Assembly (NCBI GenBank): GCA_029856435.1
Contig: JAHQXB010000073.1
Coordinates: 1 to 36,210, forward strand
Direction: 5' to 3'
DNA from: Candidatus Jordarchaeia archaeon
Lineage (GTDB): Archaea; Asgardarchaeota; Jordiarchaeia; Jordiarchaeales; Jordiarchaeaceae
Length of the DNA stretch: 36,210 bases
In this document: one piece after another, positions 8,588 through 33,265 of the stretch
How positions within the stretch are numbered: position 1 is the stretch's first letter
Layout: every line of letters begins with the position of its first letter
Program-made: the position numbers and the translations under genes
Notes under the pieces: generated by a model
Told to the model about the DNA's origin: nothing
The model's input: only the letters and a program-made list of their open reading frames with translations
Database searches by the model: none

Positions 8588-8900
8588 TGTTAAAACTGCT
8601 TCTATTTTGGAATAAAGCTTGTTAACCTGAGAAATTTCCAACTGTTAACATTAAAGAAAAACCATTAAACCCATCATTCTTCAAAAACAACCACACATAC
8701 ATGTGCCGTGCAGCCGACTCCAGCCCGGAATGCGGAAGGCTCGAAAAAGCCAATGAGGGCAGGGCCACAACTGGAAACATTCCCCACCGAAAGCAAGAGG
8801 GATGTGCCATTTCAACCGTTTCCCTAGCGAAAACCTTCCCGTGAAATTTAAGGGAGGAAGAACCAAAGTTAGGCAAGGTTAACGCTGGGTCAGAACGGTT
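8588..8900 (+). repeat. Copy 1 of a ~310-bp dispersed element (inverted relative to 32956-33265); candidate promoter plus structured ncRNA
   Basis: Alignable end to end with the reverse complement of 32956-33265. The block 8636-8702 is identical at 65/67 positions; the GC-rich 3' part is more diverged but keeps its stems. Confidence 0.92.
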
Positions 8901-8927
8901 CCTCTGTTTCGTTTGAGAGCGTTGCAT

Positions 8928-9188
8928 TCACCAAGTTTTCCGTCGCCGCATATGTGTAGGGCTGTGATTTTTAAGGTGTTTGCGCAGTGGTAACATTCGT
9001 ATGCATACTCCACGTTGGATACCTTTTTTTGAACTGTTGAGCGATATTACGTATTTTTCTATGGGTATCCTTCCGCACACTCCGTATGCGTAGATTATTT
9101 CGTCGTAGATTACTGTGGTGGGATATCCACAGTTGGGGCATTTTTTTATGAGGGGGTTTGGTGTAGGCGCCGAAAAAGGTTTTAGCAA
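8928..9188 (-). CDS. Possible small Cys-containing (Zn-ribbon-like) protein
   Basis: CPNC motif plus two later Cys residues; TTG start; short ORF. Confidence 0.4.
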   Translation of the reverse strand: MLKPFSAPTPNPLIKKCPNCGYPTTVIYDEIIYAYGVCGRIPIEKYVISLNSSKKGIQRGVCIRMLPLRKHLKNHSPTHMRRRKTW

Positions 9189-9619
9189 TTAATTTTTGGT
9201 GGTAGGTGCACCATTTGCATATTTCATATAGGGATGCTTTCCCAGTTTGGATTGTAAATTATTTGGGAGGTGTTTTGCATTATGGCTTTTCTCCACATCA
9301 TATGAACCCCTATTGTGGGGCTTTTACATGTTGGTTTGTTCCCTTATATGGGAGGTATACGTTTTGGACTGCCCAACACTTAAATCTATATGAGTGAACC
9401 AGATTTTTTGTGGTGTGCCAGAAAGCAATTACACCCAGAACTGGCTGAAAAACAAGCCCAACAAAGCCCAATAAACCACATCTCCCCAGATAACCACAAC
9501 TGAGAAAATGTACAAGTTGAAACCCATATGTTTAAACAATACTCCGGGGGCTGAATTTTTGTGGTGACCTTGCCTTTAGCCTGCCTCCGCGTCCCCTCCC
9601 ACCTCCATTTTTTACACTA

Positions 9620-9653
9620 AGGTGTTAAAAAGTGGGAGGTGTTAAAAAGTGGG
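9620..9653. repeat. Perfect 17-bp tandem repeat AGGTGTTAAAAAGTGGG x2
   Basis: Units at 9620-9636 and 9637-9653, preceded by an imperfect inverted copy (CCTCCATTTTTTACACT). Confidence 0.85.
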
Positions 9654-9819
9654 GAGATGGTTTCTTTCAAGCCAGCCACAAAAACAGATCCCTACAAATA
9701 GGAGTGCTGCCTAAATATGTGGTATTTTTGGGTTTTTGACTATTTAAGTCCACTTATTTTGAAACTGTTGCAAAAGGCGTCCCCTTTCCTTGGTTTTCCC
9801 TTTTTTCTCGGTGAATGAT

Positions 9820-10785
9820 TCAGTTTTCATTTTTTCGTTTTTCCTCAAAATTTGATTTTTTATTCTTCGTTTTTTCTTCCCAAAGGGTGTCTTCTGCGCT
9901 TTTTTCTGTTCTTTTTTTATCCCTATTCAGAAGTTGTCTTATTTCTTTGTTATCTTTGGGGATTCGGAGGATGTTTTTGGATTCCACTTCATATATTAGT
10001 TTGCTTCTGCTGGCGTTTTGGTTAGCTTTTGTGTTAGTGTTAGTTGAGTAGGCTTTCTGTATTTTTGTAGGTGTTTTGTTTCTTCTTGCTAAGTATGCTT
10101 TTTTGTAAGTATCTTCGTTGTGGTTGGCGGGGTAACTGTTTGTGCTTGGGTTGCGTTTGGGGTTGTTTTGGTGATTGTTATAATTTGTGTCTTGGGGTGG
10201 GTATAATTGGTTTTGTTGATGCTTTGTTGCTATTTGCCGGCGTATTTTTTTGAGTGCTGCGACGGTGATTATTGAGGGAATTAGTGCTATAGCTATCAGT
10301 TCTAGGACTGGGGTTTGCATATTTTGTGGTATGGGATAAGAGCCTTCAGTGAGGAGATAGTATGCGAGTATTGCGGTGACGGATATTGTGGATATGGGTG
10401 TTAATCTTAGGGTCCATTTGATTTTTCTTTTGGCCAGTGTGGCTACGGTGGCTGTTATCATGGTTGAAGCGTATAGGCTTATAAGAAGCCTTTGTTTTGT
10501 ATGTGTTTCTGTCCAGCCGGGAAGGGCGCTGTAAAATAGCGTGTAAACTGTGAAGAAAAGGAATACTCCTAGGGCTAACCTCCAGTGCTTTTTATAGAAA
10601 TTTATTGTATTGTTTATGACCCAGCGCGCCAAACGTGTCTGATCTCTGAGCATGTAGTAAAGCAGGAAATCATGCCTAACCCAGAGGAGGCATAGACAAA
10701 GAATGTAGCCTAAGACAAGTATTATCACTATCACTAAGACTGATTGCAGCAGTGATACGATGTTGGATAAGAAGTTTTCAAACAT
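9820..10785 (-). CDS. Membrane protein with about 5-6 TM helices and a polar/basic low-complexity C-terminal tail
   Basis: Hydrophobic N-terminal two thirds, N/K/E-rich tail, GGAGG before the ATG. Confidence 0.75.
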   Translation of the reverse strand: MFENFLSNIVSLLQSVLVIVIILVLGYILCLCLLWVRHDFLLYYMLRDQTRLARWVINNTINFYKKHWRLALGVFLFFTVYTLFYSALPGWTETHTKQRLLISLYASTMITATVATLAKRKIKWTLRLTPISTISVTAILAYYLLTEGSYPIPQNMQTPVLELIAIALIPSIITVAALKKIRRQIATKHQQNQLYPPQDTNYNNHQNNPKRNPSTNSYPANHNEDTYKKAYLARRNKTPTKIQKAYSTNTNTKANQNASRSKLIYEVESKNILRIPKDNKEIRQLLNRDKKRTEKSAEDTLWEEKTKNKKSNFEEKRKNEN

Positions 10786-10970: not shown

Positions 10971-13289
10971 TTAGTCTTCGTCTTCTTGTCCCTCCCCTGT
11001 TTCGCTTGGCCCGTATAAGTCGCCCTCAGAATTTTTGTAAATGATTTCTCGGCTTTTCCTTAGACGCGTGAAAAGTATTGCGCTTCCCACCAACCCGGAA
11101 CCGCTCATTGCGAGGACAATAGGCGTAGTGTTGTTTCCGTTCTGGTTAGAGCTTCCCAAAGAGAAGCCGAGTAGCACTTGGGGCTCTGAGTTATAGTCTT
11201 CTCCTTGAGTTACCACACTAATTGTTTTGCTGGTGGAGACAACAGTGTAGGATTGGTTGAAAAGAAGGAGTACTGTGTATTCGCCCACACTTTGGGGTGT
11301 CCACTGTGCTTGGAAATATTCAGTATTGTTCACCCTGTACTCCTCTGAGTAGACTAATTTTCCAGATAAATCTATTACCATTAGGGTTACTGGGTCTTGG
11401 GGCTGGGGTGTGAAAATCAGCTTGCTGAAGTTTGCCGTAATTTGGAGGGTGCTTCCCAGTACAACCTGCCCATTTTTGGCGTCGGTTTCAAGCCCGGGCA
11501 TCATTAGGTGGACTGCGAACTCCAGGCCTTTAGTCACTGTGTCGACGGTTATATTGCCTGTATAGGTACAGAATATGGTATAAGTTCCCTTGGTGCTTGG
11601 AGTCCAGTTGAGGAAAAACTGGCCCGAGCTGCTGGTGTATATAATGTAGCTTATGGGGTGACTGTTAGGATCATAGATGGTTACATTTATACTTACAACT
11701 TCCTGGGGGGGCTGATAATTAAGTGTCAGCTGTCCCTCAACGGTAACTGTGTCTCCTATGTAGATTAGGCCTCCGCCTATACCCGTGAGATTTACTGAGA
11801 GGCCTGTCTTAATCTTTACAGTGACTTGGGTGCTTGTCCAGTTCTTGGGTAAACCATTGTAGTCTCTAATCCACGCAACTACTTCATAAACCCCCATTTT
11901 TTGGGGGAACCATTGGGAGGCAGCGTAGCCCGAATTATTGGTAAAAGCATATTCTACCAGAGTGTACAAGTCGGGATTACTGGTGAAGGATGCGTTGGGA
12001 TACTCTAACTTGTTTAGTACACTCCACCGAACTAGTATATTTGAAGCTGCGTTGCCCTCTACAGTTACATAGGCGTTTAGAAGAACCCCGTCTTCACCCA
12101 GATAAATGGTGCTGGGATTAGCTGTGAATTCAGTTATTCGGTAATCAGTGGGTTGAACTGTGAAGGGTTCGATGGAGAATATCTGTCCATCAGTAGCGTT
12201 TATGGTGTAGCTGGGACCTGAAATTTGCGGTATTTGGAAAGAAGTGTAAACTGTCCCGCTGCTACTTGTGACTAATTGGTCTGTGTGCACTATGTTTTGG
12301 CTGTCGTCGACTACTGTAATGTTGAGAGTTATTCCTCCATGAGTGGTTAAGTTGAAGTTGCTGATTGCCGCGATGCTGATATTCACTGTTTCCGAAGCAT
12401 TATATTTGTAAAGGTTTGGCAAAATCTGTACGCTGTAGGGGTTTTTGTTGTGTAGCCAGATTAGGGTGTTTGTCAGAGTTTGCATGAGGCTGTTTCCGTA
12501 GGGGTTTTGGTTTATGGTTGTTATGTTATGTAGCGCCCAGTGCAACAGGTGGGGATTACCCTCGTATTGGTTATAGATGCTAAGAAAGTAGTCATCTTGC
12601 TGGGTAAGATCCTTCGCCAGGGGAATAAGTTTGGGGGAGTTGGTTAAGGTAAGGTTATCCTCGCTAAGTGGTAAGAGAATGTATCTTTGAGTAATCTCCC
12701 CATATAGGAGACTGATGCTATAATTCACATATTGAGGATATTGGTAAATTATATGGTAGTGAACGTCCCAACTGTTATACTTGGTTGAAATGCTGAGCAC
12801 ATGGACTCCTGTTTTGTTGACGACTTCCCGAGGTGTAATCTGGGCACCTAAATGGTTCAAGAACATGTAGCCTGCGCTTCCCACGGCAAGTATTGGTTTG
12901 CCGGCTTCTGCAATTATTTCAGATGCGCTCTGATTTATACTTGTGCAGGAGGTGTCGAGAATTAGGACATCGAAAACATTGGCTATTGTGGGATTGTTAA
13001 CGAGTGTTTCTAGGTAGACTTGGGTTACCGTAAAACCTTTTTGTTGAAGAACGCTTTGCCAATCATCAAAGTAGTTGTTTGCTGGACTGGTGATTAATAG
13101 TATGTTGGGTAAATTTGATTTCTGTGTGGTTGGGTTCCTACTAAATCCAAGGTTTATGGGATTCAGGTTGCTTGATAGGAGCTGGTTTGAGATTAATAGG
13201 AATCCAGTTAAAGCTAATAGTGATATTATTAGCAGTGTTAGGAGTGTTTTTTGTTTCAGTTTTATTACTCTCCTTTTTTTGGTTTTCAA
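10971..13289 (-). CDS. Cell-surface protein: N-terminal signal/TM, alpha/beta (class I GATase-like) domain, Ig-like beta-rich repeats, C-terminal TM anchor
   Basis: K-rich N-terminus followed by a hydrophobic stretch, many N-x-S/T sequons, T/V/Y-rich repeats (FxxxWTPxxxGxYT), C-terminal hydrophobic helix followed by RLRK. Confidence 0.85.
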   Translation of the reverse strand: MKTKKRRVIKLKQKTLLTLLIISLLALTGFLLISNQLLSSNLNPINLGFSRNPTTQKSNLPNILLITSPANNYFDDWQSVLQQKGFTVTQVYLETLVNNPTIANVFDVLILDTSCTSINQSASEIIAEAGKPILAVGSAGYMFLNHLGAQITPREVVNKTGVHVLSISTKYNSWDVHYHIIYQYPQYVNYSISLLYGEITQRYILLPLSEDNLTLTNSPKLIPLAKDLTQQDDYFLSIYNQYEGNPHLLHWALHNITTINQNPYGNSLMQTLTNTLIWLHNKNPYSVQILPNLYKYNASETVNISIAAISNFNLTTHGGITLNITVVDDSQNIVHTDQLVTSSSGTVYTSFQIPQISGPSYTINATDGQIFSIEPFTVQPTDYRITEFTANPSTIYLGEDGVLLNAYVTVEGNAASNILVRWSVLNKLEYPNASFTSNPDLYTLVEYAFTNNSGYAASQWFPQKMGVYEVVAWIRDYNGLPKNWTSTQVTVKIKTGLSVNLTGIGGGLIYIGDTVTVEGQLTLNYQPPQEVVSINVTIYDPNSHPISYIIYTSSSGQFFLNWTPSTKGTYTIFCTYTGNITVDTVTKGLEFAVHLMMPGLETDAKNGQVVLGSTLQITANFSKLIFTPQPQDPVTLMVIDLSGKLVYSEEYRVNNTEYFQAQWTPQSVGEYTVLLLFNQSYTVVSTSKTISVVTQGEDYNSEPQVLLGFSLGSSNQNGNNTTPIVLAMSGSGLVGSAILFTRLRKSREIIYKNSEGDLYGPSETGEGQEDED

Positions 13290-13708: not shown

Positions 13709-15142
13709 TTATTCTATTTTTCTAAGATTTATTTTTAGCATTTCGGGGCCCCATTTCCAAGTTTTGGTTTGTGCGTCAAAAAGTTCAAGTAGTGGTATTT
13801 GGCTGCCCTCCTGATGACTTCTGAAAAATAATTTATATTTTGCTAGAGGGAGAAGTGTTCTGCGAATGGCTCTCTCCAGTGGGGTTATACTGCCTAGAGG
13901 CGCTTCTAACCAGCAGGCTAATGCATTCTCATTATTTAAGGTTCTCATCCAGTAGATCCAAGTTTTAGGGAGTCTTTTTATAGCCACTACAAATGAATGA
14001 AGTGTGTCTGTGTCTGATTCTATTATGAAGAGTATGTGCTCATTTAGGCCTATTTGATCTATTCCCAATGCGAGCTGAAGTGTTCCCCTCTTCAGGAGGT
14101 TCCTCCTAGTCCTAATTATGGTGCGGGTATTGTATCTCAAATTTTGGCTCAAGTCTTGCACGGTGGCGTTGAAATTCTTGGATAAGGCGTCGATTAACTT
14201 CAATTCCTTAATGGTTACACCTCCCACTTTTCCAAGTGGAGAGGTTGAAGAGCGTTTTTTGTCCATTTCTTCTGGGGAAAGAACTTTGCCCCAACCCTTG
14301 CTTAACACATTGCTGAGGTAGAGAGACCAGGCCTTCCAGTCTATTTTCCAGTTACCTTCATCCACATCGTAGAAGTCTAGAGAAAAAGAACTCTCAAATG
14401 AATCGATTATCCAGGTCCAGAATCTTGGAGCTCTCTTCTCAAATTCTTTATAAACCAAGTTAACTGCTTTGGGGGGTACCGCAATGGAGAAGAAGGTGTA
14501 AAGGTCAATTCCTCCGTAGAGTTCTTGTCTTGAGAGGAGGTAGGGGCTTTGGACGTAGGCTTCTCCCTCCACTAAGATGAGCATATTGGTTAATCCTATC
14601 ATGGGGTAATTTACTCTGGGAAATATTCCTAGGCGGCACCGCTCCTCAAGCATCTTTTTGCGGCGTTGGATGGTGGTGTAACTGGTATTTGTCTCGTCAG
14701 CTATCTCTTTTATTGTAATAAATATGTTGCTCCTAACTTTGTCCAGAATCTTTAAATCCTTCGCATCAAGCTTAACTCGGTAATCATAAACCATGTCCTG
14801 CAAGATTTGCCTCAACTGTTCAGAGGTTAGGCTATTTTCTCCGCCCAATCGCATATACTTGTCCAACTGTTTAAGTGTGGAAATCACAGAGGGTATGAAT
14901 TCTTCACCCATTATGGTATTTGCCCTAATTAAATCTGAGAACCTTTCCTCCTTCTCTCCGCCTGGAATTTCCCCCTTATACTTATATATGAAGAACCTTG
15001 TCAGGAGTTGCTTTTCCTCCTCGGGAAGTATGTCCGGTAAGAATAATTGAAACTGTTCCTCAAGTGAGAGTGATTCAGGGTTTTCCACGGTTTTTAGGGG
15101 TTCCATCCCCAAAAAATTTTTGATATCCTCAAGCTCGCCCAA
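13709..15142 (-). CDS. Transcriptional regulator with two tandem Lrp/AsnC-like wHTH modules
   Basis: KDLKILDKVRSNIFITIKEIADETNTSYTTIQRRKKMLEE...IGL and KELKLIDALSKNFNATVQDLSQNLRYNTRTIIRTRRNLLK...IGL. Confidence 0.85.
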   Translation of the reverse strand: MGELEDIKNFLGMEPLKTVENPESLSLEEQFQLFLPDILPEEEKQLLTRFFIYKYKGEIPGGEKEERFSDLIRANTIMGEEFIPSVISTLKQLDKYMRLGGENSLTSEQLRQILQDMVYDYRVKLDAKDLKILDKVRSNIFITIKEIADETNTSYTTIQRRKKMLEERCRLGIFPRVNYPMIGLTNMLILVEGEAYVQSPYLLSRQELYGGIDLYTFFSIAVPPKAVNLVYKEFEKRAPRFWTWIIDSFESSFSLDFYDVDEGNWKIDWKAWSLYLSNVLSKGWGKVLSPEEMDKKRSSTSPLGKVGGVTIKELKLIDALSKNFNATVQDLSQNLRYNTRTIIRTRRNLLKRGTLQLALGIDQIGLNEHILFIIESDTDTLHSFVVAIKRLPKTWIYWMRTLNNENALACWLEAPLGSITPLERAIRRTLLPLAKYKLFFRSHQEGSQIPLLELFDAQTKTWKWGPEMLKINLRKIE

Positions 15143-15309: not shown

Positions 15310-16029
15310 TCATAATAGCTTTTTTACGGCCTCTTTTAGCTTTTCTGAATCAATAATGCTAATGGGGTTCAGGTGGTAATCCTTCTTGCACAGAGCCAAA
15401 ATTATCTGTGCATCCTCCGCTTCCCGGCAACCTACCAAATCAAAAAGAGTTTCTGGGCTTGTAACACCACCAATCAGAAGTTCCCAGAAAAATTCAGCCT
15501 GCGCAGCTAAAATTCTCAGCTTTCCACGGAGAACAGTTTCCCTTGACTTGTAGCGGGACGATTCGGAGAGAAGGTTTTCCATAAGCCAGCAGCGGGTTTT
15601 CACAATATCTACGTTTAGCCATTCTTGGTTTTTTAAATCATAGGCTGCCACATTGTGCTTGTTAAGTATTTTGGCGTCGGGCAGGGACGCACAAGAAGCC
15701 ACCCACCCAGTATCGAAATTCTCTACTAGGTTTTCCAAGAAATCTGATGAAATGCTTGGAGCTATGTACAATATTCTTTCGGATTTGCTGTTTTTCTCTT
15801 CTTCAAAGAGAGCTCTAAGCTCCTCTATGGCGCTCTCGGGCTCCTCTGAAACATTCTGATCCGATTCCCATAACCTTCGATGGGGCGCAAAAATAGCCAC
15901 TTCCCTCAAAACATCACGAGTAAGGAAACCTACAAAGAGCACCGGCCGCCGAAGTGTGAAAACAAGTTGTCCTAGCACTGCTAAGCCTTTTTCGCTGAAG
16001 TAGTTGAGGAGCCCCCTCAAATAATTCAC
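15310..16029 (-). CDS. Hypothetical protein translationally coupled to the MglA-like gene (possibly DENN-like)
   Basis: GTGA start/stop overlap with the GTPase gene. The DENN resemblance is by eye only. Confidence 0.7.
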   Translation of the reverse strand: MNYLRGLLNYFSEKGLAVLGQLVFTLRRPVLFVGFLTRDVLREVAIFAPHRRLWESDQNVSEEPESAIEELRALFEEEKNSKSERILYIAPSISSDFLENLVENFDTGWVASCASLPDAKILNKHNVAAYDLKNQEWLNVDIVKTRCWLMENLLSESSRYKSRETVLRGKLRILAAQAEFFWELLIGGVTSPETLFDLVGCREAEDAQIILALCKKDYHLNPISIIDSEKLKEAVKKLL

Positions 16030-16601
16030 CTGGTCCGATTCCTAATAGCTAGACGTATCATATCCCTAAAAACTTTGTATACTCCCTTGCATTTTACGGC
16101 TGATGCGCCATAAATCGGAGTAGAGCTGGGCAGTCCTAAATCTTGTCTAAGTTTTTCTGGTGTAACTGAGTTGGGTAAGTCCTGCTTATTGGCCTCGACC
16201 ACTATGGGAATCTTGTTTTCTGTGAAGGCTATTAGCTCCTCGTAGCTTCTTATGTTCTCCTTTAACCTATGTTCTTGTGAGTCAGCGATAAAAAGAATAA
16301 CGTCTGCGTTTTTGGCCACCTGCTCTCTAGTTGCTAGAAACCTCTTTTGGCCAGTAGTGGTGTGGATGTGGAATATAAAGCTGTATGGGGGAAATTCTAA
16401 TTGGAAAGCTAAGTAGTCCTCCCAAATGGTGTGGTCTTCGCTGGTTGATACTTCGTAGGGTTGACCTGTTATGTTTTGGGGAAAGAGTTTTGCTATGGCC
16501 CTTAGATTAGTGGTTTTGCCTGAGGATGCCGGTCCCCAAAAGATGATTTTCACCTGTATTAGTCCTTCATTAAAATTGGTTTGTGTCTTGTCTTGTTTCA
16601 A
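16026..16601 (-). CDS. mglA: MglA-like small GTPase
   Basis: KIIFWGPASSGKTTNL, DHTIWEDY (aligned to MglA RTLFFDF), TTTGQ, NKQDL, ASAVKCKGV; adjacent to a roadblock gene. Confidence 0.88.
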   Translation of the reverse strand: MKQDKTQTNFNEGLIQVKIIFWGPASSGKTTNLRAIAKLFPQNITGQPYEVSTSEDHTIWEDYLAFQLEFPPYSFIFHIHTTTGQKRFLATREQVAKNADVILFIADSQEHRLKENIRSYEELIAFTENKIPIVVEANKQDLPNSVTPEKLRQDLGLPSSTPIYGASAVKCKGVYKVFRDMIRLAIRNRTR

Positions 16602-23000: not shown

Positions 23001-23012
23001 ACGGCACAACCC

Positions 23013-24894: not shown

Positions 24895-25152
24895 CTACAG
24901 AGGCGGCCCTCCGGAAGGTGGGGATAGGAAGGAATATTTGTCCTCCCGCCGCCTTTTTTCGGAATCGTCTTTAGGCACCTTTTGTGTTGACTTGTCCGAA
25001 GAACTCCTTTTGGTATCAAGTCCCAGCTTCTTTATGCTTCTCAAAATGGTGGTCTCAGATACTCCCAGCTTTTCAGCGATTTGCCTTACGGTTAATCCTT
25101 GTCTGTATAACTGTTTGAGCTCTTCTTCGGTAAATTTTCTACTTGACGTCAC
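24895..25152 (-). CDS. Small helix-turn-helix DNA-binding protein
   Basis: EELKQLYRQGLTVRQIAEKLGVSETTILRSIKKLGL; GTG at 25152 after CAGGTG. Confidence 0.85.
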   Translation of the reverse strand: MTSSRKFTEEELKQLYRQGLTVRQIAEKLGVSETTILRSIKKLGLDTKRSSSDKSTQKVPKDDSEKRRREDKYSFLSPPSGGPPL

Positions 25153-25230
25153 TGTTAACACCTGAGAATTTTGGAGGCAAAAATATCCTTTATAAATACA
25201 TAGTGTTGCCTCAAAGTGGCCCCATTTCAC

Positions 25231-25975: not shown

Positions 25976-26248
25976 GTGAATTTGATGCCCGAAGTCTATT
26001 GTAAGAATTTAAACAAGATGGTTGATGGAGGATACTGCTCCTTTATATGTAACCTTCCAGAAACCGAAAAAAGAATCTTCTACAACCCCTTCAGAGGCAT
26101 CATCGCCGAATGCAACTTTAACGAGGCCCCCCAAGAATCTGAAACCAAAACCACTCCTACCATTACAAAAAAGGGTGAACCAGAAGAGCCCTCCAAAAGT
26201 TCCCAATCAATAACTATCAAATCAAAAAAATTTTTGGAGGAAGAATAA
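25976..26248 (+). CDS. Small protein with four Cys and a disordered tail (likely start ATG 25985)
   Basis: GGTGA SD-like sequence, C-x11-C-x3-C-x20-C, stop four bases before the radA start. Confidence 0.65.
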   Translation: MNLMPEVYCKNLNKMVDGGYCSFICNLPETEKRIFYNPFRGIIAECNFNEAPQESETKTTPTITKKGEPEEPSKSSQSITIKSKKFLEEE

Positions 26249-26252
26249 AACA

Positions 26253-27320
26253 TTGGACATAACCAACATTAAGGGTATAGGACCGGAAAAAGCCAAAAAA
26301 CTCATGAACGCCGGCTACAGCACAGTAGAAAGCATCGCCTTCTCCTCACCCAGAGACCTATCCCTAGACTCCGGAATACCAGAAGAAACCGCCCGAACAA
26401 TTATTGCCTCCGCCAAGCTGATTATCCGCTCCAAAGAAAACACCAAAGGCGGAAAACTGGTGGAAATCCTCTCAGGTAAAGACGCCAAAAAAGTCCTGCA
26501 AAACATGGATCACATAACCACCGGAATAAAGGGGCTTGACCGAATATTGGGTGGAGGAATAGAAACCTGTGCAGTAACCGAGTTCTACGGACCAGCAAAG
26601 GCGGGAAAAACACAGATATGCCACCAGCTATGCGTCACAGTACAGCTTCCACGAGAAAAAGGCGGCCTTGAAGCACCAGCCCTCTACATAGATACAGAAA
26701 GAACAGTCAAATATGACCACATCAAAAGTGTGGCTGAGAGATTCGGCCTAGATCCAGACCTGGCAAGTGACAATGTATTCTACGCTTACACTATGAATAG
26801 TGAAGCTCTATACGAACTGGTTCACAAAAATTTGGACGAGGTAGTTCAAAACAGGGGAATCAAACTTGTGGTCGTTGACTGTCTAACTGGACACTTCCGC
26901 GCAGAATACTGCGGTAGAGAAAGTCTACCCCTGAGACAACAAAAAATAAACAGAATTATTCACGACCTGTTGAGAATCGCGGTTTCCCACGATTTAGCAG
27001 TGGTGGTAACAAACCAGGTACACTCCCAGCCCGACCTATATGGCAAGAGCGAGAACCCCATAGGCGGGCACACGGTGGCTCACGGAGTCACCTTCAGGCT
27101 GGGCCTGAGCACCAGAAAATACAACATGAGAACTGTAACCGTAGTAGACGCCCCCGCCCTTCCCCCAGATGAAGCCTACTTTGCAATAACCTCCAGGGGA
27201 CTAATTGACATAAATCCCAAGGATTTGAATTCCAAATGCCCAATCAAATTCCCTGGTGAAGGCGAAATAAGGGAAAGAGAAGTAGAGAGTGTGGAGGAGG
27301 CAGAAACCGTTACAGATTAA
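26253..27320 (+). CDS. radA: RadA/Rad51-family recombinase (divergent paralogue)
   Basis: N-terminal HhH (IKGIGPEKAKKL), TTGIKGLDRILGGG, GPAKAGKTQ, YIDTE, HFRAEYxGR, RQQK, TNQV, PIGGH. Confidence 0.95.
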   Translation: MDITNIKGIGPEKAKKLMNAGYSTVESIAFSSPRDLSLDSGIPEETARTIIASAKLIIRSKENTKGGKLVEILSGKDAKKVLQNMDHITTGIKGLDRILGGGIETCAVTEFYGPAKAGKTQICHQLCVTVQLPREKGGLEAPALYIDTERTVKYDHIKSVAERFGLDPDLASDNVFYAYTMNSEALYELVHKNLDEVVQNRGIKLVVVDCLTGHFRAEYCGRESLPLRQQKINRIIHDLLRIAVSHDLAVVVTNQVHSQPDLYGKSENPIGGHTVAHGVTFRLGLSTRKYNMRTVTVVDAPALPPDEAYFAITSRGLIDINPKDLNSKCPIKFPGEGEIREREVESVEEAETVTD

Positions 27321-27336
27321 ATTCCGGTGGTACAGC

Positions 27337-29937
27337 GTGTCTAGAAGGGCAATAACATTCACGCTACTCCCCCTCATAATTGTCCTAATGGTTTCCAGCC
27401 TCTTTGCTGTTCTAACCATGTCAATCAGTTACCAGTCCCAACCCCTAAACGAAGTGAAACCTGTTTATGTTCCCAAATCTGCGGTGAGTGTTGCCTATCT
27501 TACAAATCAATCCACTCCCTTAAAATGGGAGAAATATTTTACAAATGGTTCAAGTCAAGCTAACCTGCAGAATGCAATTGGTTTCCTCTCATCTCTGGGT
27601 ACTCGTCACACATCACGGACGGAGTGTAACACTTCTGCAGATTATATTTTTGCAGCTCTTCAATCCTATGGTTACCTGCCCTCAAGAGACTATTTCTCTG
27701 TTATTTGGCAAAACGTATCCTACGTTACCCAAAACATATACTGTGTTAAGCCCTCAGCCTCTCAAGAAATAATCCTTCTTGTCTGCCATTACGACTCTAT
27801 AAGAGTTCTAAGAATAGGGGACACGATTTTGGGTCTTCAAAACACCAACTGTCCCGGAGCGGTTGACGACGCTGCGGGAGTGGCGATACTTTTAGAGACC
27901 GCCCGTCTACTATATAATGTGAGCTTTGAGAAAACCATTGTTTTCGCTTTTCTGAGCGGAGAGGAGGGAAACAGCACCCAAGAACACTGGTTCGGCTCAC
28001 AGCAACTAGTCACCCAAGGATACCAATTATTCACCACCCAACTTTCAAACATAAAAAGAGTAGTTTATCTAGACACTATTGGGGAGCTCCCCTACGGCGA
28101 GCCAAATGGACAAATAGGAATATTTTCGGAACCAACATTATGGACACATAAAAGTTCACTTATAAGCGCAGCCACAGATCTCGGAATAAATATACTTTCT
28201 GAAAACGCTCCCCGAGCCGGCTCTATTTCCCAAGCTAAAAAGGAATTCTACTCAGAATGGTACCTACAATCAGTGCTACCCACAATAACTATCTCCCAAA
28301 CTAACTCGACTCTCACTACAAGCGATAGGCTCACCCAACTTGACACCTCCTCCATAATAGATTACACTCTTATTGAAAATGTAGCCAAAATTCTCACCGC
28401 CTCACTGGTAAGAGAATTCTTCACGCTTCCACCAAGCTCCCCCAGCCATGCACATGAGTGGAACGAACTCTTAAGCCTCTATCTAGGCGGAGTCACCTTC
28501 TTTGAGCAGGATTACACAGAGTACTTATCCCACCCCAGTTCAAACGTGGTAATAATTGGGCCGGGATTGAACTTTTCAGAAAAAGAACTCCAAGACCTAG
28601 CCGCCATAAATAAGCCCCTCATCTGCACTGGGAACAGTGGTATAAATCTACTTGGAGGCTTAGGCGCCCAATTAACCAGCAGTACTAGCAACACTAATCA
28701 TGTTAACCTAGTAAGTGTAGATCTGTTCTACCACCCAATATGGGAAAATGTGGAGGAAAACATCACCGTTACGATTAATCAGGGTGAAACAACTCTCATC
28801 ACCGTTGGAAGCAGTTTTTTCTCATTCCTAGAATACCAGGATAAATGCTGGCTGGGCTGCTATTACGGTCATACCTTCTCCAAGTATGTTTTCTACGTGG
28901 GGCGGGACAATCCCGCTAATCTCAGCGGCAAAGCAAAACACATTCTTAGTAATCTTGTTTCTTGGTGTTCCAAACAGGAGGACTACCATCTGCAGCTTCA
29001 ACCCTCAAAAATTGTGGGTGGACAAAAAACAAATCTCACTATGGCTGTGAGAAACGCTCTCAGCTGGGAGGTGGTAGAGGCAGCCTCTTTTATGGTAAGC
29101 ATCACCCAGAATGGTGAGCAAATATTTCAAGGTGTTGTACCAACAACAAATGGCTACTTTACTATAGAAGTCACACTAAAGGTGGGAAAATGTGTCCTCT
29201 CTGCTTCCAGCGGCATAATTTCTGCAACTAGAGAAGTTGGCGTAATTCCTCCTTTTAACGTTCAAATGTTTTATCCTCCCACCTCGACTCAGGATGAGTA
29301 TTTACTTTTAGCTGTTATACTAGAAAGCTCATCTTCCCAAGACCAAAATCTTCAAGTATTCATACCCGAGCTTCGGGTTTATACTCAGATCCATCTGCCT
29401 CCAAATGGTTCAGTAATAATATATATTCCTGCAGTCTATACTCCATCGTCTCCCTACGACCAGGGTATTCATCTTTTCACGACTATAGTTCAAGGCCACT
29501 GTTCCAACGTTTTAGCCTTCCCGATGTTCATTTACCCATCCCTTAGAAGCACTGTTTTTGGATATGTCCTCCCCTTTGCCGCCTTACTGACCTGCAGCAT
29601 TTTTTCCTACAGAAGAGTATTCCACATTAAGCCCCCGAAAGAGATTCAGCTCCGGGAAGCTGAGAGAAGGGAGAGAAGAAAATTCTTTGAGGGGCTCATC
29701 TTAGAAAACCCAAAAGATGTTGAAATACTGATAAAGTATCTGAGGGAGACGGGGTTCGTGGAAATGGGTGAAAACCGATTCTACAATTTCCAAGCCATAG
29801 TTGAGATAAAAACCAGAGGGGAGAACTCCATTGTCAGAATCTTTTCCTCTCAAAGAGGTTTCTATGAACATTTACAATTGAAGTTGGAGGAGTGGGAAAG
29901 CCAATCTCAAGGAGGTATGCGAAGTGATGTGGGGTGA
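27337..29937 (+). CDS. Surface-anchored M28-family peptidase-like protein with GATase-like and Ig-like domains and a C-terminal TM
   Basis: GTG at 27337 after GGTGG, then a signal/TM segment; VCHYDS, GAVDDAAGVA, SGEEG, YLDTIG; TM near the C-terminus followed by a basic segment. Confidence 0.88.
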   Translation: MSRRAITFTLLPLIIVLMVSSLFAVLTMSISYQSQPLNEVKPVYVPKSAVSVAYLTNQSTPLKWEKYFTNGSSQANLQNAIGFLSSLGTRHTSRTECNTSADYIFAALQSYGYLPSRDYFSVIWQNVSYVTQNIYCVKPSASQEIILLVCHYDSIRVLRIGDTILGLQNTNCPGAVDDAAGVAILLETARLLYNVSFEKTIVFAFLSGEEGNSTQEHWFGSQQLVTQGYQLFTTQLSNIKRVVYLDTIGELPYGEPNGQIGIFSEPTLWTHKSSLISAATDLGINILSENAPRAGSISQAKKEFYSEWYLQSVLPTITISQTNSTLTTSDRLTQLDTSSIIDYTLIENVAKILTASLVREFFTLPPSSPSHAHEWNELLSLYLGGVTFFEQDYTEYLSHPSSNVVIIGPGLNFSEKELQDLAAINKPLICTGNSGINLLGGLGAQLTSSTSNTNHVNLVSVDLFYHPIWENVEENITVTINQGETTLITVGSSFFSFLEYQDKCWLGCYYGHTFSKYVFYVGRDNPANLSGKAKHILSNLVSWCSKQEDYHLQLQPSKIVGGQKTNLTMAVRNALSWEVVEAASFMVSITQNGEQIFQGVVPTTNGYFTIEVTLKVGKCVLSASSGIISATREVGVIPPFNVQMFYPPTSTQDEYLLLAVILESSSSQDQNLQVFIPELRVYTQIHLPPNGSVIIYIPAVYTPSSPYDQGIHLFTTIVQGHCSNVLAFPMFIYPSLRSTVFGYVLPFAALLTCSIFSYRRVFHIKPPKEIQLREAERRERRKFFEGLILENPKDVEILIKYLRETGFVEMGENRFYNFQAIVEIKTRGENSIVRIFSSQRGFYEHLQLKLEEWESQSQGGMRSDVG

Positions 29938-30382
29938 AGAAATAGTAGGTGGGATACTAGGCTATCTACTAACAGATGGAGTCATGTTGCTCGTTGCATT
30001 CCTTTTGCTGTTTCTAGCTCTCAAAATCATCATGGTAATACTTGGAACGGAAGAAAACAGAGTGCGTCCCCTACCTTTATCCGGGGCTCAATGGCCTGAA
30101 AAAGCTAATCCCTATATTCAAATAGCCGAGGCCTTGGAGAGGGGGGATCAGAGAGCCTTACTCTGGTTAATGAGCCAAAACACACTAAGAAGAAGGATTT
30201 TTAGAGCTCTAAACTCTTTTGCGGTTGATTTGTTTTTGGGCACCGTATCCATATTATCTGTCCTGAGCATATACATCAAAATTAGGGCCATTCCAGTTCA
30301 GGATTGGATTGTAATCATAATGGCAGCGGCGGCCCTTATTCTCATAGGCATCTCATATTGGAGGGTAAAAGTTGAGAATTAA
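29924..30382 (+). CDS. Small membrane protein with 3-4 TM helices
   Basis: GGAGGT SD, overlaps the end of the M28-like gene, strongly hydrophobic ends. Confidence 0.8.
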   Translation: MMWGEEIVGGILGYLLTDGVMLLVAFLLLFLALKIIMVILGTEENRVRPLPLSGAQWPEKANPYIQIAEALERGDQRALLWLMSQNTLRRRIFRALNSFAVDLFLGTVSILSVLSIYIKIRAIPVQDWIVIIMAAAALILIGISYWRVKVEN

Positions 30383-30478
30383 AGATGATGTGGAACACTT
30401 GAAAACTCAAATTGAGACTCCCAGAACTTACTCTAACATTCACTGTTACCTAATTAGAGTTAAAGGAGGTTTAAAGAA

Positions 30479-31360
30479 GTGTCAATTGAAAAAATAAAGG
30501 CCAAAGCAAAAAGTGTGAAGCCCGGAGAAGTGGAGTTTGAAGAAGTTACATTTGACAGCCCCGCCACTATTGAGTGGTCTGATAGAAACGCCAAAATCTT
30601 CAGCCCAATAAATGTAGCCAAGTTCATGATGGTGTTCATAGTCTGCATACTTTCCTACTTTTTATCCAATGTTTACTTATCCTATCCCTACTGGGTAATT
30701 GCAACTGCTGCTTGCACCTATATCGCGCTTTGTGCAGTTAGCACCAAGGCAGCTTCACCCTTTCTTAAACTATTAAGTCATGGAAAGTGGCCTAGCAAAG
30801 AAAAGTTTTCACTGGTTAACCCCTTTCAGGATTTAACATTTTTCTTTATGAATGGAGAGGAATCTGTACTAATAATGCGTGACAGTTACAAGCTAGCAGC
30901 CTACGCCATGATGAAGGTTGAGGAAATTCCCCTAAACATTAGAGGCGATTTCAAATACTTCTTCCGAACACTATACCTGCAAAAACTACCAGTAATCTAT
31001 TTTGTAGAGAGCAGCCCAGTGTCTGAGAAAATTGTGAAATATTTACCGAACATGGAAGAAAAAAGTCAAAGGTACCTAGCCAAGAAAGACCCATCACGCA
31101 GAAAAACATTCCTCTGGGGAGGAGGAGGCATCTGGACAACCCGTATAGTTCTGGGAACCAAAAAAGAAATAATAGCGCCAGTAAGACTTGACAATTCCAT
31201 TAAAAAACTGGTTGAAGAAGTGAAAATGAACGCTTTTTCCCTAGCCACCGCATTCGAGAACTCCTACCCTCACTGCAAAATTGAACCCCTAGTGGGCGAA
31301 TCCCTCCTAGAAGCTACTAAAGCTATGCTCACTGGAGGAGGAGTATCCCATTTTTTCTAA
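30479..31360 (+). CDS. N-terminal membrane part of a VirB4/HerA/CedB-like protein
   Basis: Two TMs, GGIWTTRIVL segment, ends at the slippery T TTT TTC immediately followed by TAA. Confidence 0.8.
   Translation: MSIEKIKAKAKSVKPGEVEFEEVTFDSPATIEWSDRNAKIFSPINVAKFMMVFIVCILSYFLSNVYLSYPYWVIATAACTYIALCAVSTKAASPFLKLLSHGKWPSKEKFSLVNPFQDLTFFFMNGEESVLIMRDSYKLAAYAMMKVEEIPLNIRGDFKYFFRTLYLQKLPVIYFVESSPVSEKIVKYLPNMEEKSQRYLAKKDPSRRKTFLWGGGGIWTTRIVLGTKKEIIAPVRLDNSIKKLVEEVKMNAFSLATAFENSYPHCKIEPLVGESLLEATKAMLTGGGVSHFF
31351..31360 (+). other. Candidate -1 frameshift site T TTT TTC TAA
   Basis: X XXY YYZ heptamer in the correct phase. The -1 frame is open from 31321 into the 31387-32925 ORF and reads FFLTGLEAALTFVDL. 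Confidence 0.65.
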
Positions 31361-31386
31361 CAGGACTGGAGGCGGCTCTAACATTC

Positions 31387-32925
31387 GTGGATCTCGCAGA
31401 TTTCATGTCCAAGGGATTAGTGGTTAAACCAGCGGCAGAATTCATCAGCCCCTCCGTAGATTACGACTTACTACTGGGAAGAGTAATTGAAACAGAAACC
31501 TACAAGGAAGATGTGGACGTAGGACTAAAAGTAGAGCACTTGCACAGGGGCATTATGGTTGCGGGAGGAAGCCAAGATGAACGTAACGCCACCAACCTAA
31601 AAATCATCTTTGAAGCTTCCAACTTTTCGTGGAACTACCTAATGGTGGATACAAAGAATCAACTTAGAAAACTAGTGAAGTTGAACCCCGAAACACGCGT
31701 ATACCCCAGCAAAAGTATATGCATAAATCCCCTCGATCCAGAAGACTCAAGCATTTCCGAATACATTTCCCTGCTGCTCCAACTATTCCAAATCCTATGG
31801 AACCTCACAGACAGGCAGAGCATCTGTTTAAATGAAGCATTAAGGAGCGTCTACGAGAAATACGAGAATGCCACCCCCACCCTTGAGGATTTGAGAAACG
31901 CCTTAATCAGTCAGAGTTCGTCCAAACTAAGAACCCCACAGGAGAGAAGTGAAATAGAAGGAGTGATACGAAGCATAACAGGATTACTTGTTTCTGAAGA
32001 ATCTCCAACAATAAATGGGCGCTCCACAATGCCCTTCGGAGACCTCACAACCAACCCCACGATTATTGAAATAACATCGAAAGACCGCCATTTTTCGTGC
32101 TTCCTAAAGGGTTTGATGATAGTAAAAGCCCTGGCCACCGATACGAAAAGATATTCCATATTTATCGACGATGCTGAGGAGATTTTCAAAAACATACGGT
32201 TTGGGTGGAAAACACAACAAGTCTATTTCCAGGAACACCTAACAGGATGGGTGGAAAGCCTAAAGGGAATGAAAGTGGGATTACACATTTCAACCAGTCT
32301 ACCCAGACTAATCTACGGCCCGGTTCGCCCCCTGATAGAAACCCAAATATTCCACAAACTAGTTTCAGGCGAAGACATCGACGCAGCAGGAGACTTATTG
32401 GGCCTAGAGGAACACGCACCAGGTATACACTCCGATAAAAGGGAAAGACTCTACCAAAAAACCTACCTCAAATACCTAAAAGAGGGAGAAGCCCTTTTCC
32501 ACAGACCAGACCTGCCAACCGGATTCCCCATCAAAATACACTACCCCACACTGGTATTCTCAATGCCGCCCTCAGACCAAGAAATAAAAATTAGACTCCA
32601 AGATCTTTATCCTCCCCAAAACGTCAACCTCCCAGAAAGCTTACCATCCACCACGCTTGAAAGAGATTTGAAAAATGAAAGCGAACACGCCGCAGAAATA
32701 CTGCAACTACTCCACGAATACCCCCAACTCTCCTCAACAAACATAGTGCTAAGCCTAAAAATGGAGGTGGAACCAGAAAAAATAAGGTATCTCCTCGAAA
32801 AGCTCAAGGAACTAGAATACCTCAAGGAAAGACTAGAAATCTGGAAATCAAAAACAAAAAGGGTATACTCCCTAACACTAAAAGGAGAACAAGCCCTAAA
32901 AGAATATACAGAATCCAAACATTGA
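31387..32925 (+). CDS. HerA/VirB4 (DUF87)-like P-loop-fold domain with degenerate Walker A and a C-terminal wHTH; probably the C-terminal part of a ~815-aa frameshifted gene
   Basis: LLLGRV, LHRGIMVAGGSQDER, LMVDTKNQ, INPLDP, IFIDDAEE, TQIFHKL, LKEGEALF; C-terminal LEKLKELEYL...YSLTLKG. Confidence 0.85.
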   Translation: MDLADFMSKGLVVKPAAEFISPSVDYDLLLGRVIETETYKEDVDVGLKVEHLHRGIMVAGGSQDERNATNLKIIFEASNFSWNYLMVDTKNQLRKLVKLNPETRVYPSKSICINPLDPEDSSISEYISLLLQLFQILWNLTDRQSICLNEALRSVYEKYENATPTLEDLRNALISQSSSKLRTPQERSEIEGVIRSITGLLVSEESPTINGRSTMPFGDLTTNPTIIEITSKDRHFSCFLKGLMIVKALATDTKRYSIFIDDAEEIFKNIRFGWKTQQVYFQEHLTGWVESLKGMKVGLHISTSLPRLIYGPVRPLIETQIFHKLVSGEDIDAAGDLLGLEEHAPGIHSDKRERLYQKTYLKYLKEGEALFHRPDLPTGFPIKIHYPTLVFSMPPSDQEIKIRLQDLYPPQNVNLPESLPSTTLERDLKNESEHAAEILQLLHEYPQLSSTNIVLSLKMEVEPEKIRYLLEKLKELEYLKERLEIWKSKTKRVYSLTLKGEQALKEYTESKH

Positions 32926-32955
32926 TCAAAACCATACACAAAAAACTAAAACAGC

Positions 32956-33265
32956 AACCGTTCTGACCCAGTGTTAACCTCGCATAACTTGGGGTTCCCT
33001 CCCTCAAGTTTCGTACGGAGACCGGTTCGCCCCGGGGAACGGTTGAAGCAGGCACATCTCTCCTGCTTTCGATGGGAGGATGTTCCCAGTTATGGCCCTG
33101 TCCTCTTTTGGGCTTTTTCGAACCTTCCCGCATTCCGGGCTGGGCTGGAATCGGCTGCGCGATATGTATGTGTGGTTGTTTTTGAGGAATGATGGGTTTA
33201 ATGGTTTTTCTTTAATGTTAACTGTTGGAAGTTAACAAACTTTCTAATTAGAAGCAGTTTTAACA
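32956..33265 (-). repeat. Copy 2 of the ~310-bp element (inverted)
   Basis: Reverse complement aligns with 8588-8900 from TGTTAAAACTGCTTCTA to GGGTCAGAACGGTT. Confidence 0.92.

Follow-up and report, generated by a model that had tools for sequence, protein, structure and literature searches.

Systems of DNA import built on a domesticated type IV secretion system (T4SS) are known in archaea, namely Ced of Sulfolobales (CedA, CedA1, CedA2, CedB, CedD and CedE) and Ted of Thermoproteales (PMC9905601, PMC11868833, PMC11823120), and the Ced papers cover Crenarchaeota only. CedB and CedD each contain a transmembrane (TM) segment, half of a VirB4 N-domain and an ATPase fold (PMC11868833). Here we describe a block of genes between positions 8,588 and 33,265 of a 36,210-nucleotide (nt) contig (JAHQXB010000073.1; the whole contig is called the window below) from an Asgard archaeon of the Jordarchaeia ("Freyarchaeia"). 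We show that this block is a conserved, inherited gene cluster, which links private paralogues of recombination enzymes with a membrane-anchored VirB4/HerA-fold protein having a dead P-loop, with surface proteins and with a GTPase pair. No publication describing such an Asgard cluster was found in the full-text literature on Asgard VirB4/HerA and recombination enzymes, and the cluster is apparently undescribed.

The cluster resembles Ced in being a chromosomal archaeal system with a membrane-anchored VirB4/HerA-fold protein, in the layout of TM segment, VirB4-N-like domain and ATPase fold, and probably in the half VirB4 N-domain, which would be carried by a protein of 293 amino acids (aa) as it is by CedB and CedD. 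A functional link with homologous recombination may also be common to both, as suggested for the Asgard cluster by its genes. However, the Asgard VirB4-like protein is without the Walker A lysine, carries an extra C-terminal winged helix and is encoded by a split gene in Jordarchaeia. Pfam and NCBIfam revealed no CedA/VirB6-like channel or CedA1/A2 pilins in the block, a Roadblock/GTPase pair is added, and the cluster brings its own private recombination paralogues where Ced makes use of housekeeping RadA. An earlier annotation of the window, made without database searches (the sequence-only reading), had proposed an Asgard analogue of Ced. The VirB4/HerA-fold membrane architecture agrees with that proposal, but a working Walker A motif and a CedA/VirB6-like channel or pilin were not identified. 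The cluster belongs neither to Ced nor to the T4SS, because a working ATPase is absent and the scores against the respective models are far below their cut-offs.

Other described systems share single aspects with the cluster. Bacterial competence (ComEC, ComFA, DprA and RecA) is alike in logic, with a membrane complex, a superfamily 2 (SF2) helicase/translocase, and a recombinase loader with its recombinase. Its membrane parts are non-homologous, however; there is no ComEC-like channel in the Asgard block, which has recombinases of RadA/RadB type, a FEN1-type nuclease and a dead VirB4-like protein instead. The HerA-NurA-Mre11-Rad50 operon also has a HerA-superfamily ring protein beside recombination enzymes, and HerA (4d2i) is a top structural match of the Asgard protein. 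But NurA, Mre11 and Rad50 are all missing from the block, and the Asgard protein differs from HerA in being anchored in the membrane by a partner, in being ATP-dead, in having a probable VirB4-type N-domain and in having no recognised HAS-barrel. Defence systems (Sir2-HerA/Nezha, DUF4297-HerA, TdpAB, DndH, Hachiman HamAB and Zorya) are alike in the HerA/DndH fold (Z 20-29) and the HamB-like helicase, and Zorya also acts at the membrane. Unlike them, the block is without their effector domains, its ATPase is inactive and RadA/RadB/FEN1 paralogues are present. PADLOC models gave no match for the block proteins except for the generic helicase core.

Genomes and sequence comparison

The window is contig C90 of genome G000 (3.54 Mb, 181 contigs, 97.8% complete). 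Compared genomes included the closed chromosome CP147778 (G005), Ca. Jordarchaeum madagascariense (G002), Ca. Baldrarchaeum yapensis (G016) and a close relative (G004), whose proteins are 91-98% identical and whose genes stand in the same order as those of the window. The family of the window genome is named f1, its sister family f2 (including G009); G014 belongs to f6, and G015 and G035 belong to f7. Proteins were scored against Pfam, NCBIfam and curated equivalog models with their cut-offs. The distribution of the VirB4-like gene was counted by profile match (E <=1e-10) among 151 sampled Asgard genomes, and maximum-likelihood trees were built for RadA, FEN1 and Hel308. TM helices were counted by simple hydropathy, and for the 293-aa protein also from a predicted model. 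A star (RadA*, RadB*, Hel308*, FEN1*) marks the paralogue of the cluster as against the canonical housekeeping copy.

Organization and conservation of the cluster

The genes of the block are arranged in two arms. The minus-strand arm runs from 25,230 down to ~8,928 and the plus-strand arm from 25,976 to 32,925, and they are separated by an intergenic region of 745 nt (25,231-25,975), which is matched with the divergence point of ~25.2-26.0 kb given in the earlier reading. The genes look like two divergent operons of a chromosomal, vertically inherited Asgard cluster.

All the other genomes of the genus, five in number, carry the VirB4-like gene. Three of them (G002, G004, G005) were examined for gene order and share an unchanged core order between the 239-aa and 512-aa genes, while the pair of surface protein and four-TM protein, the AsnC-type gene and the flanks shift among them. 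In G009 of the sister family the cluster is a tightly packed, single-strand operon of 13 genes, in the order surface protein, Roadblock protein, GTPase, 239-aa homologue, Hel308*, Zn-ribbon/winged helix-turn-helix (wHTH) protein, RadB*, 451-aa homologue, RadA*, a 106-aa gene, 293-aa homologue, 512-aa homologue and FEN1*. Parts of the cluster are kept in G006 and G008. Baldrarchaeum encodes RadB*, Hel308* and a split VirB4-like pair. An operon of ~15 genes in G015 holds RadA*, a Zn-ribbon/wHTH-like protein, an XPD-like helicase, a fused VirB4-like protein, Hel308*, RadB*, a third RecA-fold protein, FEN1* and TM proteins, and G035 has the same layout. In G014 of f6, a GTPase, a 239-aa-like protein and an M28-like protein adjoin the fused VirB4-like gene.

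The conserved core consists of the VirB4-like protein, Hel308*, RadA*, RadB*, FEN1* and the Zn-ribbon/wHTH protein, and recurs in f2, Baldrarchaeia and f7. Besides the DNA enzymes it comprises a membrane module, in which a small TM protein precedes the split VirB4-like protein. Judged from gene neighbourhood, the Jordarchaeial core is joined by a triad of Roadblock protein, GTPase and 239-aa protein and by large surface proteins. The VirB4-like profile matched 72 of the 151 Asgard genomes (5/5 of the other f1 genomes, 4/5 in f2 and 22/26 in f7). RadA* and the VirB4-like gene are both absent from G007, and G010 has no RadA* and only a weak VirB4-like match of distant type. Every one of the six genomes of the genus carries the block, as do genomes of other families, and no empty site for the whole block was found in relatives.

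Synteny of the recombination genes with a VirB4/HerA-fold membrane module across several Asgard families supports the sequence-only reading. The findings it had named as fatal to it (sole copies branching with housekeeping orthologues, no synteny elsewhere, no VirB4/Ced-like fold among the membrane proteins) did not turn up.

The two G015 genes without a counterpart in the window are the XPD/Rad3-like helicase (DEAD_2 and Helicase_C_2; L040 14341-16302) and the third RecA-fold protein (5129-5833).

Dedicated paralogues of recombination enzymes

The earlier proposal that the recombination genes of the block are dedicated ones held: canonical RadA, FEN1 and RadB are encoded elsewhere in the genome, and the cluster copies fall outside the canonical clades. 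By score, and for RadA*, FEN1* and Hel308* also by tree position, the four starred enzymes are dedicated divergent paralogues and not the housekeeping copies. The further copies of RadA, FEN1 and RadB found by tblastn lie on contigs of normal composition. Canonical Hel308 and FEN1 are located elsewhere also in G005, G009, G015, G016, G025 and G035.

RadA* (26253..27320, plus strand) is a full-length RadA paralogue with helix-hairpin-helix N-domain, intact Walker A and B motifs and L1/L2 loops. Alignment revealed an insert of 10 aa, an acidic tail at the C terminus and, in the polymerisation motif, Ile in place of Phe. RadA* passed the model NF003301 (332 bits, cut-off 259), for which the canonical copies on contigs C153 and C94 scored 496 and 488 bits, and did not pass TIGR02236 (316 against a cut-off of 361). 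This type of RadA (>=65% identity) is found in f1 and f2 only among the 151 Asgard genomes, and its identity is 88% within the genus and 64% across the order. In the tree, the cluster copies of f1 and f2 form a clade (100/99) on a long stem, outside the Jordarchaeial canonical RadA clade. The full length, the intact L1/L2 loops and the strong conservation of RadA* point to genuine strand exchange.

The canonical-type RadA is itself duplicated in the genome (C153:7134-8081 and C94:33659-34630). Both copies are also in the closed chromosome G005, so they represent a recent duplication and no artefact of a metagenome-assembled genome.

FEN1* (17268..18242, minus strand) is a paralogue of the FEN1/XPG nuclease family, scoring 297 bits with TIGR03674 (cut-off 352), whereas the canonical FEN1 on contig C109 scored 508 bits. 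The same gap is found in relatives, with 431-518 bits for canonical and 103-299 bits for cluster copies. In the tree the canonical clade is supported by 99.6/100 and all cluster copies lie outside it. The catalytic carboxylates are kept in the alignment, and the FF of the C-terminal, PCNA-binding PIP box (QxxLxxFF) is lost, the protein ending with ...QMIQSTL.

FEN1* of the sister family (G009 L036 14419-15225; G006 L034 5757-6572) is without ~25-30 residues of the helical arch. In FEN1 the helical arch threads 5' flaps. The missing arch in these proteins hints at a GEN1-like preference for branched DNA.

Hel308* (20793..23009, minus strand) is a Hel308/Ski2-type helicase paralogue with Pfam DEAD, Helicase_C and archaeal helicase domain 4, in which motifs I (GKT) and II (DEIH) are present. 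It scored 393 bits with NF002654, against a cut-off of 887. Canonical Hel308 encoded elsewhere in G005, G009, G015 and G016 scored 856-906 bits with that model, and the cluster copies of relatives 211-369 bits. The tree has a canonical clade with 100/100 support and all cluster copies outside it. Hel308* is the best Hel308-type gene of its own assembly, where no canonical Hel308 was found; either an assembly gap or a real loss may account for this. The closed G005 has an intact canonical Hel308 of 739 aa (C1:1801582-1803801).

Ca. Baldrarchaeum has a second cluster-type Hel308 paralogue of 779 aa on another contig (C12:36213-38522). As it groups with the cluster copies and not with canonical Hel308, it may indicate a second copy of the system.

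RadB* (19627..20391, minus strand) is a RadB-like RecA-fold ATPase paralogue with intact Walker A motif (GEAATGKT). It reached 130 bits with TIGR02237, below the cut-off of 172, while a more canonical RadB on contig C9 reached 172.7 bits. The gene beside it (20369..20800, minus strand) encodes a protein with a Zn-ribbon (CPxC...CPRC) and a C-terminal winged helix, and this winged helix matches the C-terminal winged helix domain of MCM (2m45, profile search, E 1.8e-4). Its orthologues are found in the f1, f2 and f7 operons. As far as their motifs tell, RadA*, FEN1*, RadB* and Hel308* are apparently all enzymatically active.

A split VirB4-like protein

The last two genes of the plus-strand arm encode a 293-aa protein (30479..31360, plus strand) and, directly downstream, a 512-aa protein (31387..32925, plus strand). 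The predicted models indicate that together they make up a split VirB4-like protein, the fold of the C-terminal part being firmly supported and the N-domain moderately.

The 512-aa protein was modelled by AlphaFold on 52 sequences (pLDDT 90) as an FtsK/HerA-superfamily domain (VirB4/HerA/DndH-like) with a C-terminal winged helix. The top Foldseek matches of the model were HerA (4d2i, E 3e-13) and VirB4 (4ag6, E 2.5e-12). VIA-align gave Z 29 for the DndH C-domain and the VirB4 C-terminal domain, 26 for HerA and 24 for TrwB over residues ~16-400, and against VirB4 4ag5_A in particular Z 29.0 with a root-mean-square deviation of 3.2 over 332 aligned residues. Residues ~420-512 form the winged helix. 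This model confirmed the VirB4/HerA-like protein which had been read from sequence in the right arm. Sequence models recognised it poorly: there was no Pfam match, including DUF87, and NCBIfam CedD NF053655 gave E 3e-5 (22.7 bits against a cut-off of 600), with CD1110-type VirB4 (E 1.5e-3) and TraC (E 0.06) also far below their cut-offs.

With a profile built from seven orthologues, 3,690 relatives (E <=0.001) were detected among 1.84 billion representatives. In the closest relatives, of ~770-780 aa and ~1,250 aa, the homologous part follows an N-terminal extension, and distant relatives (E ~1e-24) carry DUF87 and a canonical P-loop. At the Walker A position the 512-aa protein reads AGGSQDER, and the family reads GG[ST]xxER; the Walker B Asp is mostly kept. 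Since the Walker A Lys is lost across the family, the VirB4-like protein cannot be a CedB-like motor or a canonical ATP hydrolase.

The 293-aa protein was predicted to have two TM helices (hydropathy finds one) followed by an alpha/beta domain (model pLDDT 80.5). Its top 13 Foldseek matches were all TrwK/VirB4 (E ~1e-3). VIA aligned residues 117-289 with residues 219-378 of VirB4 8rtd_g at Z 10.5, and other VirB4 chains at Z 5.5-7.8; residues 219-378 are the half of the VirB4 N-domain which precedes the ATPase domain. The protein also aligns with the N-terminal extension of the fused forms, with R163 and W219 nearly invariant. The VirB4-like gene is split in Jordarchaeia and Baldrarchaeia, is a single open reading frame (ORF) of ~750-790 aa in f7 and in G014, and has ~1,000-1,300 aa elsewhere. 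Where split, the two are ordinary coupled genes, with an overlap of 4 nt in G009 and an in-frame gap of 9 nt in G006. In the window the ORFs show a -1 frame offset, for which start/stop overlaps as in G009 account; a programmed -1 frameshift joining them was considered and is not needed.

Membrane, surface and GTPase proteins

Upstream of Hel308* lies the gene of a 617-aa protein with two central TM helices (23013..24866, minus strand; start M52 = 24866). It is the fastest-evolving gene of the block, with 36-45% identity within the genus, and had no family match and no PDB profile match (Pfam, NCBIfam, PDB). Between RadB* and FEN1* lies the gene of a 451-aa protein found in Jordarchaeia only (18294..19649, minus strand), with three N-terminal TM helices and a soluble part of ~330 aa. 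It had no sequence match in Pfam, NCBIfam or PDB and nothing useful in the ESM Atlas, and longer fused forms were not found, which is weak evidence. Most gene calls of the sequence-only reading stood (HTH protein, 617-aa membrane protein, Hel308-like, Zn-ribbon/wHTH, RadB-like, FEN1, Roadblock-GTPase, AsnC-type HTH, the surface protein with MG2/Ig-like domains, RadA, M28-like and the small membrane protein), but the 451-aa protein, called VirB4-N-like, has no such similarity that could be detected: hhalign gave a probability of 1% against the family of the 293-aa partner and 4% against the 323-aa TM protein of f7.

Downstream of FEN1* are a Roadblock/LC7 (MglB-like) protein (16617..17192, minus strand) and a small Ras/Arf-like (MglA-like) GTPase (16026..16601, minus strand). 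The former matched Pfam Robl_LC7 above the cut-off (25.1 bits) and NCBIfam MglB weakly (E 1.9e-4), the latter Pfam Ras (1e-9, 38.5 bits, above cut-off) and Arf (2e-9). Their adjacency, as in an MglA/MglB-type switch, suggests such a pair, which is kept in the G009 operon, where the GTPase orthologue is 49% identical. The GTPase gene overlaps by 4 nt with the gene of a 239-aa protein of no known family (15310..16029, minus strand), whose orthologues adjoin the GTPase gene in G009 and G014. The occurrence of the Roadblock-GTPase-239-aa triad in the same single-strand operon of another genus ties the MglAB pair to the system, as had been suspected.

On the plus strand, an 882-aa membrane-anchored surface protein with an M28 peptidase-like domain (27289..29937; Pfam Peptidase_M28 6.6e-18) follows RadA*, and its relative adjoins the VirB4-like gene in G014. 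A 152-aa protein with three TM helices (29924..30382, plus strand) is encoded just upstream of the VirB4-like pair, and its position is held by a small gene in the clusters of G009, G016 and G015 examined.

The remaining genes of the minus-strand arm are peripheral or travel with peripheral ones. A 477-aa protein with AsnC/Lrp-type HTH (13709..15142, minus strand; Pfam HTH_AsnC-type 25.8 bits, below the cut-off of 27; HTH_24 22.3 bits, above cut-off) is absent from the corresponding place in G002. A 772-aa surface protein (10971..13289, minus strand) with N-terminal signal/TM segment, MG2/Ig-like domains and C-terminal TM segment is encoded on the other side of the block in G005, and a relative of it is inside the G009 operon. 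A 321-aa four-TM membrane protein with low-complexity tail (9820..10785, minus strand) travels with it. The surface proteins have TM segments at both ends. The membrane proteins of 152, 321, 451 and 617 aa had no Pfam or NCBIfam match.

The arms start with two small genes. A helix-turn-helix (HTH) protein of 111 aa (24895..25230, minus strand; Pfam HTH_38/HTH_11/HTH_7, ~1e-6) opens the left arm and is kept in G005, G002 and G004. A Cys-rich protein of 90 aa (25976..26248, plus strand) opens the right arm.

The dispersed repeat at the ends of the block

An inverted repeat of ~310 nt had been noticed at the ends of the block and taken as its boundary. The repeat is indeed present, with copy 1 at 8589..8899 on the plus strand (5'-GTTAAAACTGC...CAGAACGGT-3') and copy 2 at 32957..33264 on the minus strand, in reverse orientation. 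These arms were first detected as 8579-8939 and 32917-33274, and the limits of the insert were refined by comparison with G004. Both gene arms end close to the same repeat end (...CAGAACGGT), at a distance of 20-35 nt, as had also been stated. But the repeat does not bound the block, since its copies are dispersed and the insertion sites are empty in G004. The two copies are independent insertions of a dispersed element, outside the gene system and unrelated to the genes between them, and a false lead is thereby removed.

The two repeat arms are ~80-85% identical in pairwise alignment with several indels, and therefore are not protein-coding. When the left arm was searched against its own genome, 51 matches were spread over many contigs, at least 40 of them near full length at 77-88% identity. 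The left arm is matched better by 14 other copies (81-86%) than by the right arm (80%). With ~45 copies in 3.5 Mb, nearly half are expected to have a neighbour copy within 25 kb; two copies each also lie on contigs C123, C129, C132 and C138. In G004 both insertion sites are empty and the gene order of the block is identical from the Rab-like GTPase gene to the metallo-beta-lactamase gene; at the position of copy 1 the precise empty site is GCTAGGGGT^TCACC. The repeat was not found in the stretches fetched around the block of G002 or G005, and whole-genome searches did not find the repeat family in G002, G004, G005 (closed chromosome), G006 and G009.

The repeat may be a non-autonomous element of IS200/605 type. 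Its ends GTTAAAACTGC and CAGAACGGT have no terminal inverted repeats, and it lies directly 3' of (T/A)GGGGT in ~20 of 24 copies; this conserved 5' flank suggests site-specific insertion of the IS200/IS605-derived kind. It is alike with the non-autonomous elements derived from this family (PATEs) in being without terminal inverted repeats, in the insertion 3' of a short motif (GGGGT) and in the many diverged copies, and also in its host genome, which carries Y1 TnpA (two tnpA genes) and many TnpB remnants (17 tnpB pieces). Unlike PATEs, the repeat has no copy that was found next to a tnpA or tnpB gene, subterminal hairpins were not demonstrated, and insertion may have duplicated a GGT target.

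Examples of further copies in the genome are C44:11157-11490 and C8:1696-2015, and ~10 copies carry an extra insert of ~200 nt near position 261. A structured RNA was also considered. RNAalifold on 26 copies gave a weak consensus on either strand with essentially no covariation (-16 and -25 kcal for the two strands, against -7 and -14 for column shuffles), which does not support a structured RNA. A SAM-II riboswitch in the repeat region was a chance Rfam match (E 3) at permissive thresholds. A partial paralogue of the 90-aa Cys-rich protein (63% identical) lies at C129:9987-10277, ~200 nt from a dispersed-repeat copy.

Possible function of the cluster

We are highly confident in the anatomy, that is, the dispersed repeat, the set of paralogues, the conserved cluster and the dead VirB4-like protein. 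For the whole explanation, in which an inherited cluster joins a membrane module with private DNA enzymes for uptake or exchange, we see about an even chance. The functional part taken by itself, DNA uptake or exchange coupled to recombination, is put forward tentatively, by analogy and at somewhat less than an even chance. We infer that the complex handles DNA at the membrane. The ATP-dead VirB4-like protein would serve as a membrane-anchored ring or scaffold, with DNA bound through its winged helix, and Hel308* (with the XPD paralogue in f7) could be the motor on DNA at the envelope. RadA* and RadB* might assemble on the single strand and bring about its pairing with the chromosome, and FEN1* would trim the resulting flaps or branches. 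The surface proteins may mediate contact, and the GTPase pair may position or switch the complex. The whole would be an analogue of Ced plus homologous recombination, or of competence (ComFA/DprA/RecA), differently built. Uptake or exchange is favoured because it uses every class of part: contact proteins, secretion-derived scaffold, helicases, recombinases and flap nuclease.

Several results weigh against this proposal. It is weakened because the ATPase is dead and no channel or pilin is recognised: the Walker A Lys is replaced by Arg in 43 of 52 family members and GxxxxGK[ST] occurs at this place in none of the 52, and Pfam and NCBIfam recognised no VirB6/CedA-like channel, VirB2-like (CedA1/A2) pilin or other DNA conduit. 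In an unbiased structure search with the 293-aa model, T3SS-chaperone/YbjN-like folds (type III secretion system) tie at Z 6.8, so that the VirB4 match is moderate. The cluster RadAs of f1/f2 and of f7 join at 90/83 support on long branches, where long-branch attraction is possible. A k-mer comparison of eight upstream regions gave a loose CCCAAAAA-like word, and no shared promoter motif was established. Finally, the patchy distribution and the fast-evolving membrane parts fit defence equally well.

Defence would mean a membrane-anchored system against viruses or plasmids, in which foreign DNA entering at the envelope is sensed by the dead VirB4-like scaffold together with the surface proteins and is then destroyed by the Hel308-like helicase and FEN1-like nuclease, as in the logic of Zorya and Hachiman, the RecA-fold proteins being sensors of single-stranded DNA. 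It would account for the presence in 72 of 151 Asgard genomes with gaps within families, and for the fast evolution of the enzymes and of the membrane and surface parts (36-57% identity within the genus against 88% for RadA*). Hel308* matches the models of Hachiman HamB and Shango SngC (E 1e-41 to 1e-39), and HerA folds are common in defence, with Sir2-HerA, DUF4297-HerA, TdpAB and DndH among the top structural matches. But the HamB match is to a generic Ski2/Hel308 core and no other block protein matches PADLOC, the gene order and phylogeny are vertical in the order and not island-like, and the full-length, conserved RadA* with intact L1/L2 loops points to strand exchange. To our knowledge, known defence systems do not use strand exchange. 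We therefore regard defence as unlikely, though as a serious rival. It seems improbable that the cluster is a membrane-tethered apparatus for internal repair or chromosome handling, a second recombination pathway for the DNA of the cell itself at the envelope (for example broken or replicating DNA anchored there, or DNA during segregation), while no DNA crosses the membrane. The large surface proteins in the G009 operon, the M28-like protein beside the VirB4-like protein in G014, the descent of a TM-anchored scaffold from secretion/translocation ATPases and the dispensability in many Asgard genomes would all be left unexplained, even though this role explains a complete private toolkit with intact active sites, an ATP-dead scaffold that is no translocation motor and the missing channel or pilins, and the loss of the FF of the FEN1* PIP box fits a role away from the replisome.

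The two other explanations concern the origin of the block. An ordinary housekeeping repair neighbourhood, lying near membrane genes by chance, would be in line with the fact that all the enzymes belong to housekeeping families and that Hel308* is the sole Hel308-type gene found in the assembly. Such a neighbourhood is very improbable, because canonical RadA, RadB and FEN1 are elsewhere in the genome and canonical Hel308 is in relatives, because the cluster Hel308, FEN1 and RadB score far below cut-offs with the cluster copies outside the canonical clades, and because the same combination occurs as tight single-strand operons in distant families. A domesticated mobile element or composite transposon of 24 kb, bounded by the ~310-bp inverted repeat, had been considered in the sequence-only reading; the two copies do lie in opposite orientation, each next to the end of a gene arm, and turn the same end inward. 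This origin is hardly credible. At least 40 copies of the repeat are scattered over the genome and the two arms are not one another's closest relatives, G004 has the block in the same place without either copy and G002 and G005 are also without the repeat, Pfam scans of the window proteins found no integrase or transposase inside the block, no empty block site was seen in relatives, and inheritance looks vertical, the block being found throughout the genus (six genomes) and also in other families.

Eukaryotes arose from the Asgard lineage. If DNA uptake or exchange is the function, as the parts suggest, the cluster would be the first candidate for a DNA-exchange or dedicated-recombination apparatus in Asgard archaea. 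In its gene content the cluster reflects an old duplication of a whole toolkit (RadA, RadB, Hel308, FEN1; XPD in f7) into a private, membrane-linked set. A comparable split between housekeeping and specialised recombinases is known from eukaryotic meiosis. A more specific and rather doubtful version is a programme of mating and recombination in many Asgard archaea, dependent on cell contact and switched by the GTPase, which would own a RadA/Rad51-type recombinase, helicases, an XPG-type nuclease and an ATP-free VirB4-derived scaffold. If this is true, a specialised recombination pathway apart from repair would exist in the prokaryotes most closely related to eukaryotes, and this bears on the origin of meiotic recombination paralogues and of sex. 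Even as defence or internal repair it would be a system without described counterpart, and the large VirB4/HerA-fold family, conserved despite the lost P-loop Lys, represents a candidate case of a secretion ATPase turned scaffold.

Flanking genes and other features of the window

No tRNA was found in the window, and Rfam at gathering thresholds gave no match over its whole length. A repeated 15-mer of the divergent region showed no enrichment (4 matches, with 2.8 expected). The block is flanked by ordinary chromosomal genes, among them two adjacent EamA-family transporter paralogues (4841-5779 and 6048-7064; 73% identity over 300 nt), a gene of the metallo-beta-lactamase fold, a Rab-like GTPase of the Ras family (E 1e-50), a KaiC/V4R protein and an alcohol dehydrogenase. 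Direct repeats of ~110 nt (34600-34708 and 35771-35879, 93-97% identical) lie on either side of a 258-aa KaiC-like gene (34785-35561). Two intergenic regions near the start of the window also contain short repeats, with three tandem units of 52 nt, two of them identical, at 607-770 and two identical units of 30 nt, 66 nt apart, at 1357-1452.

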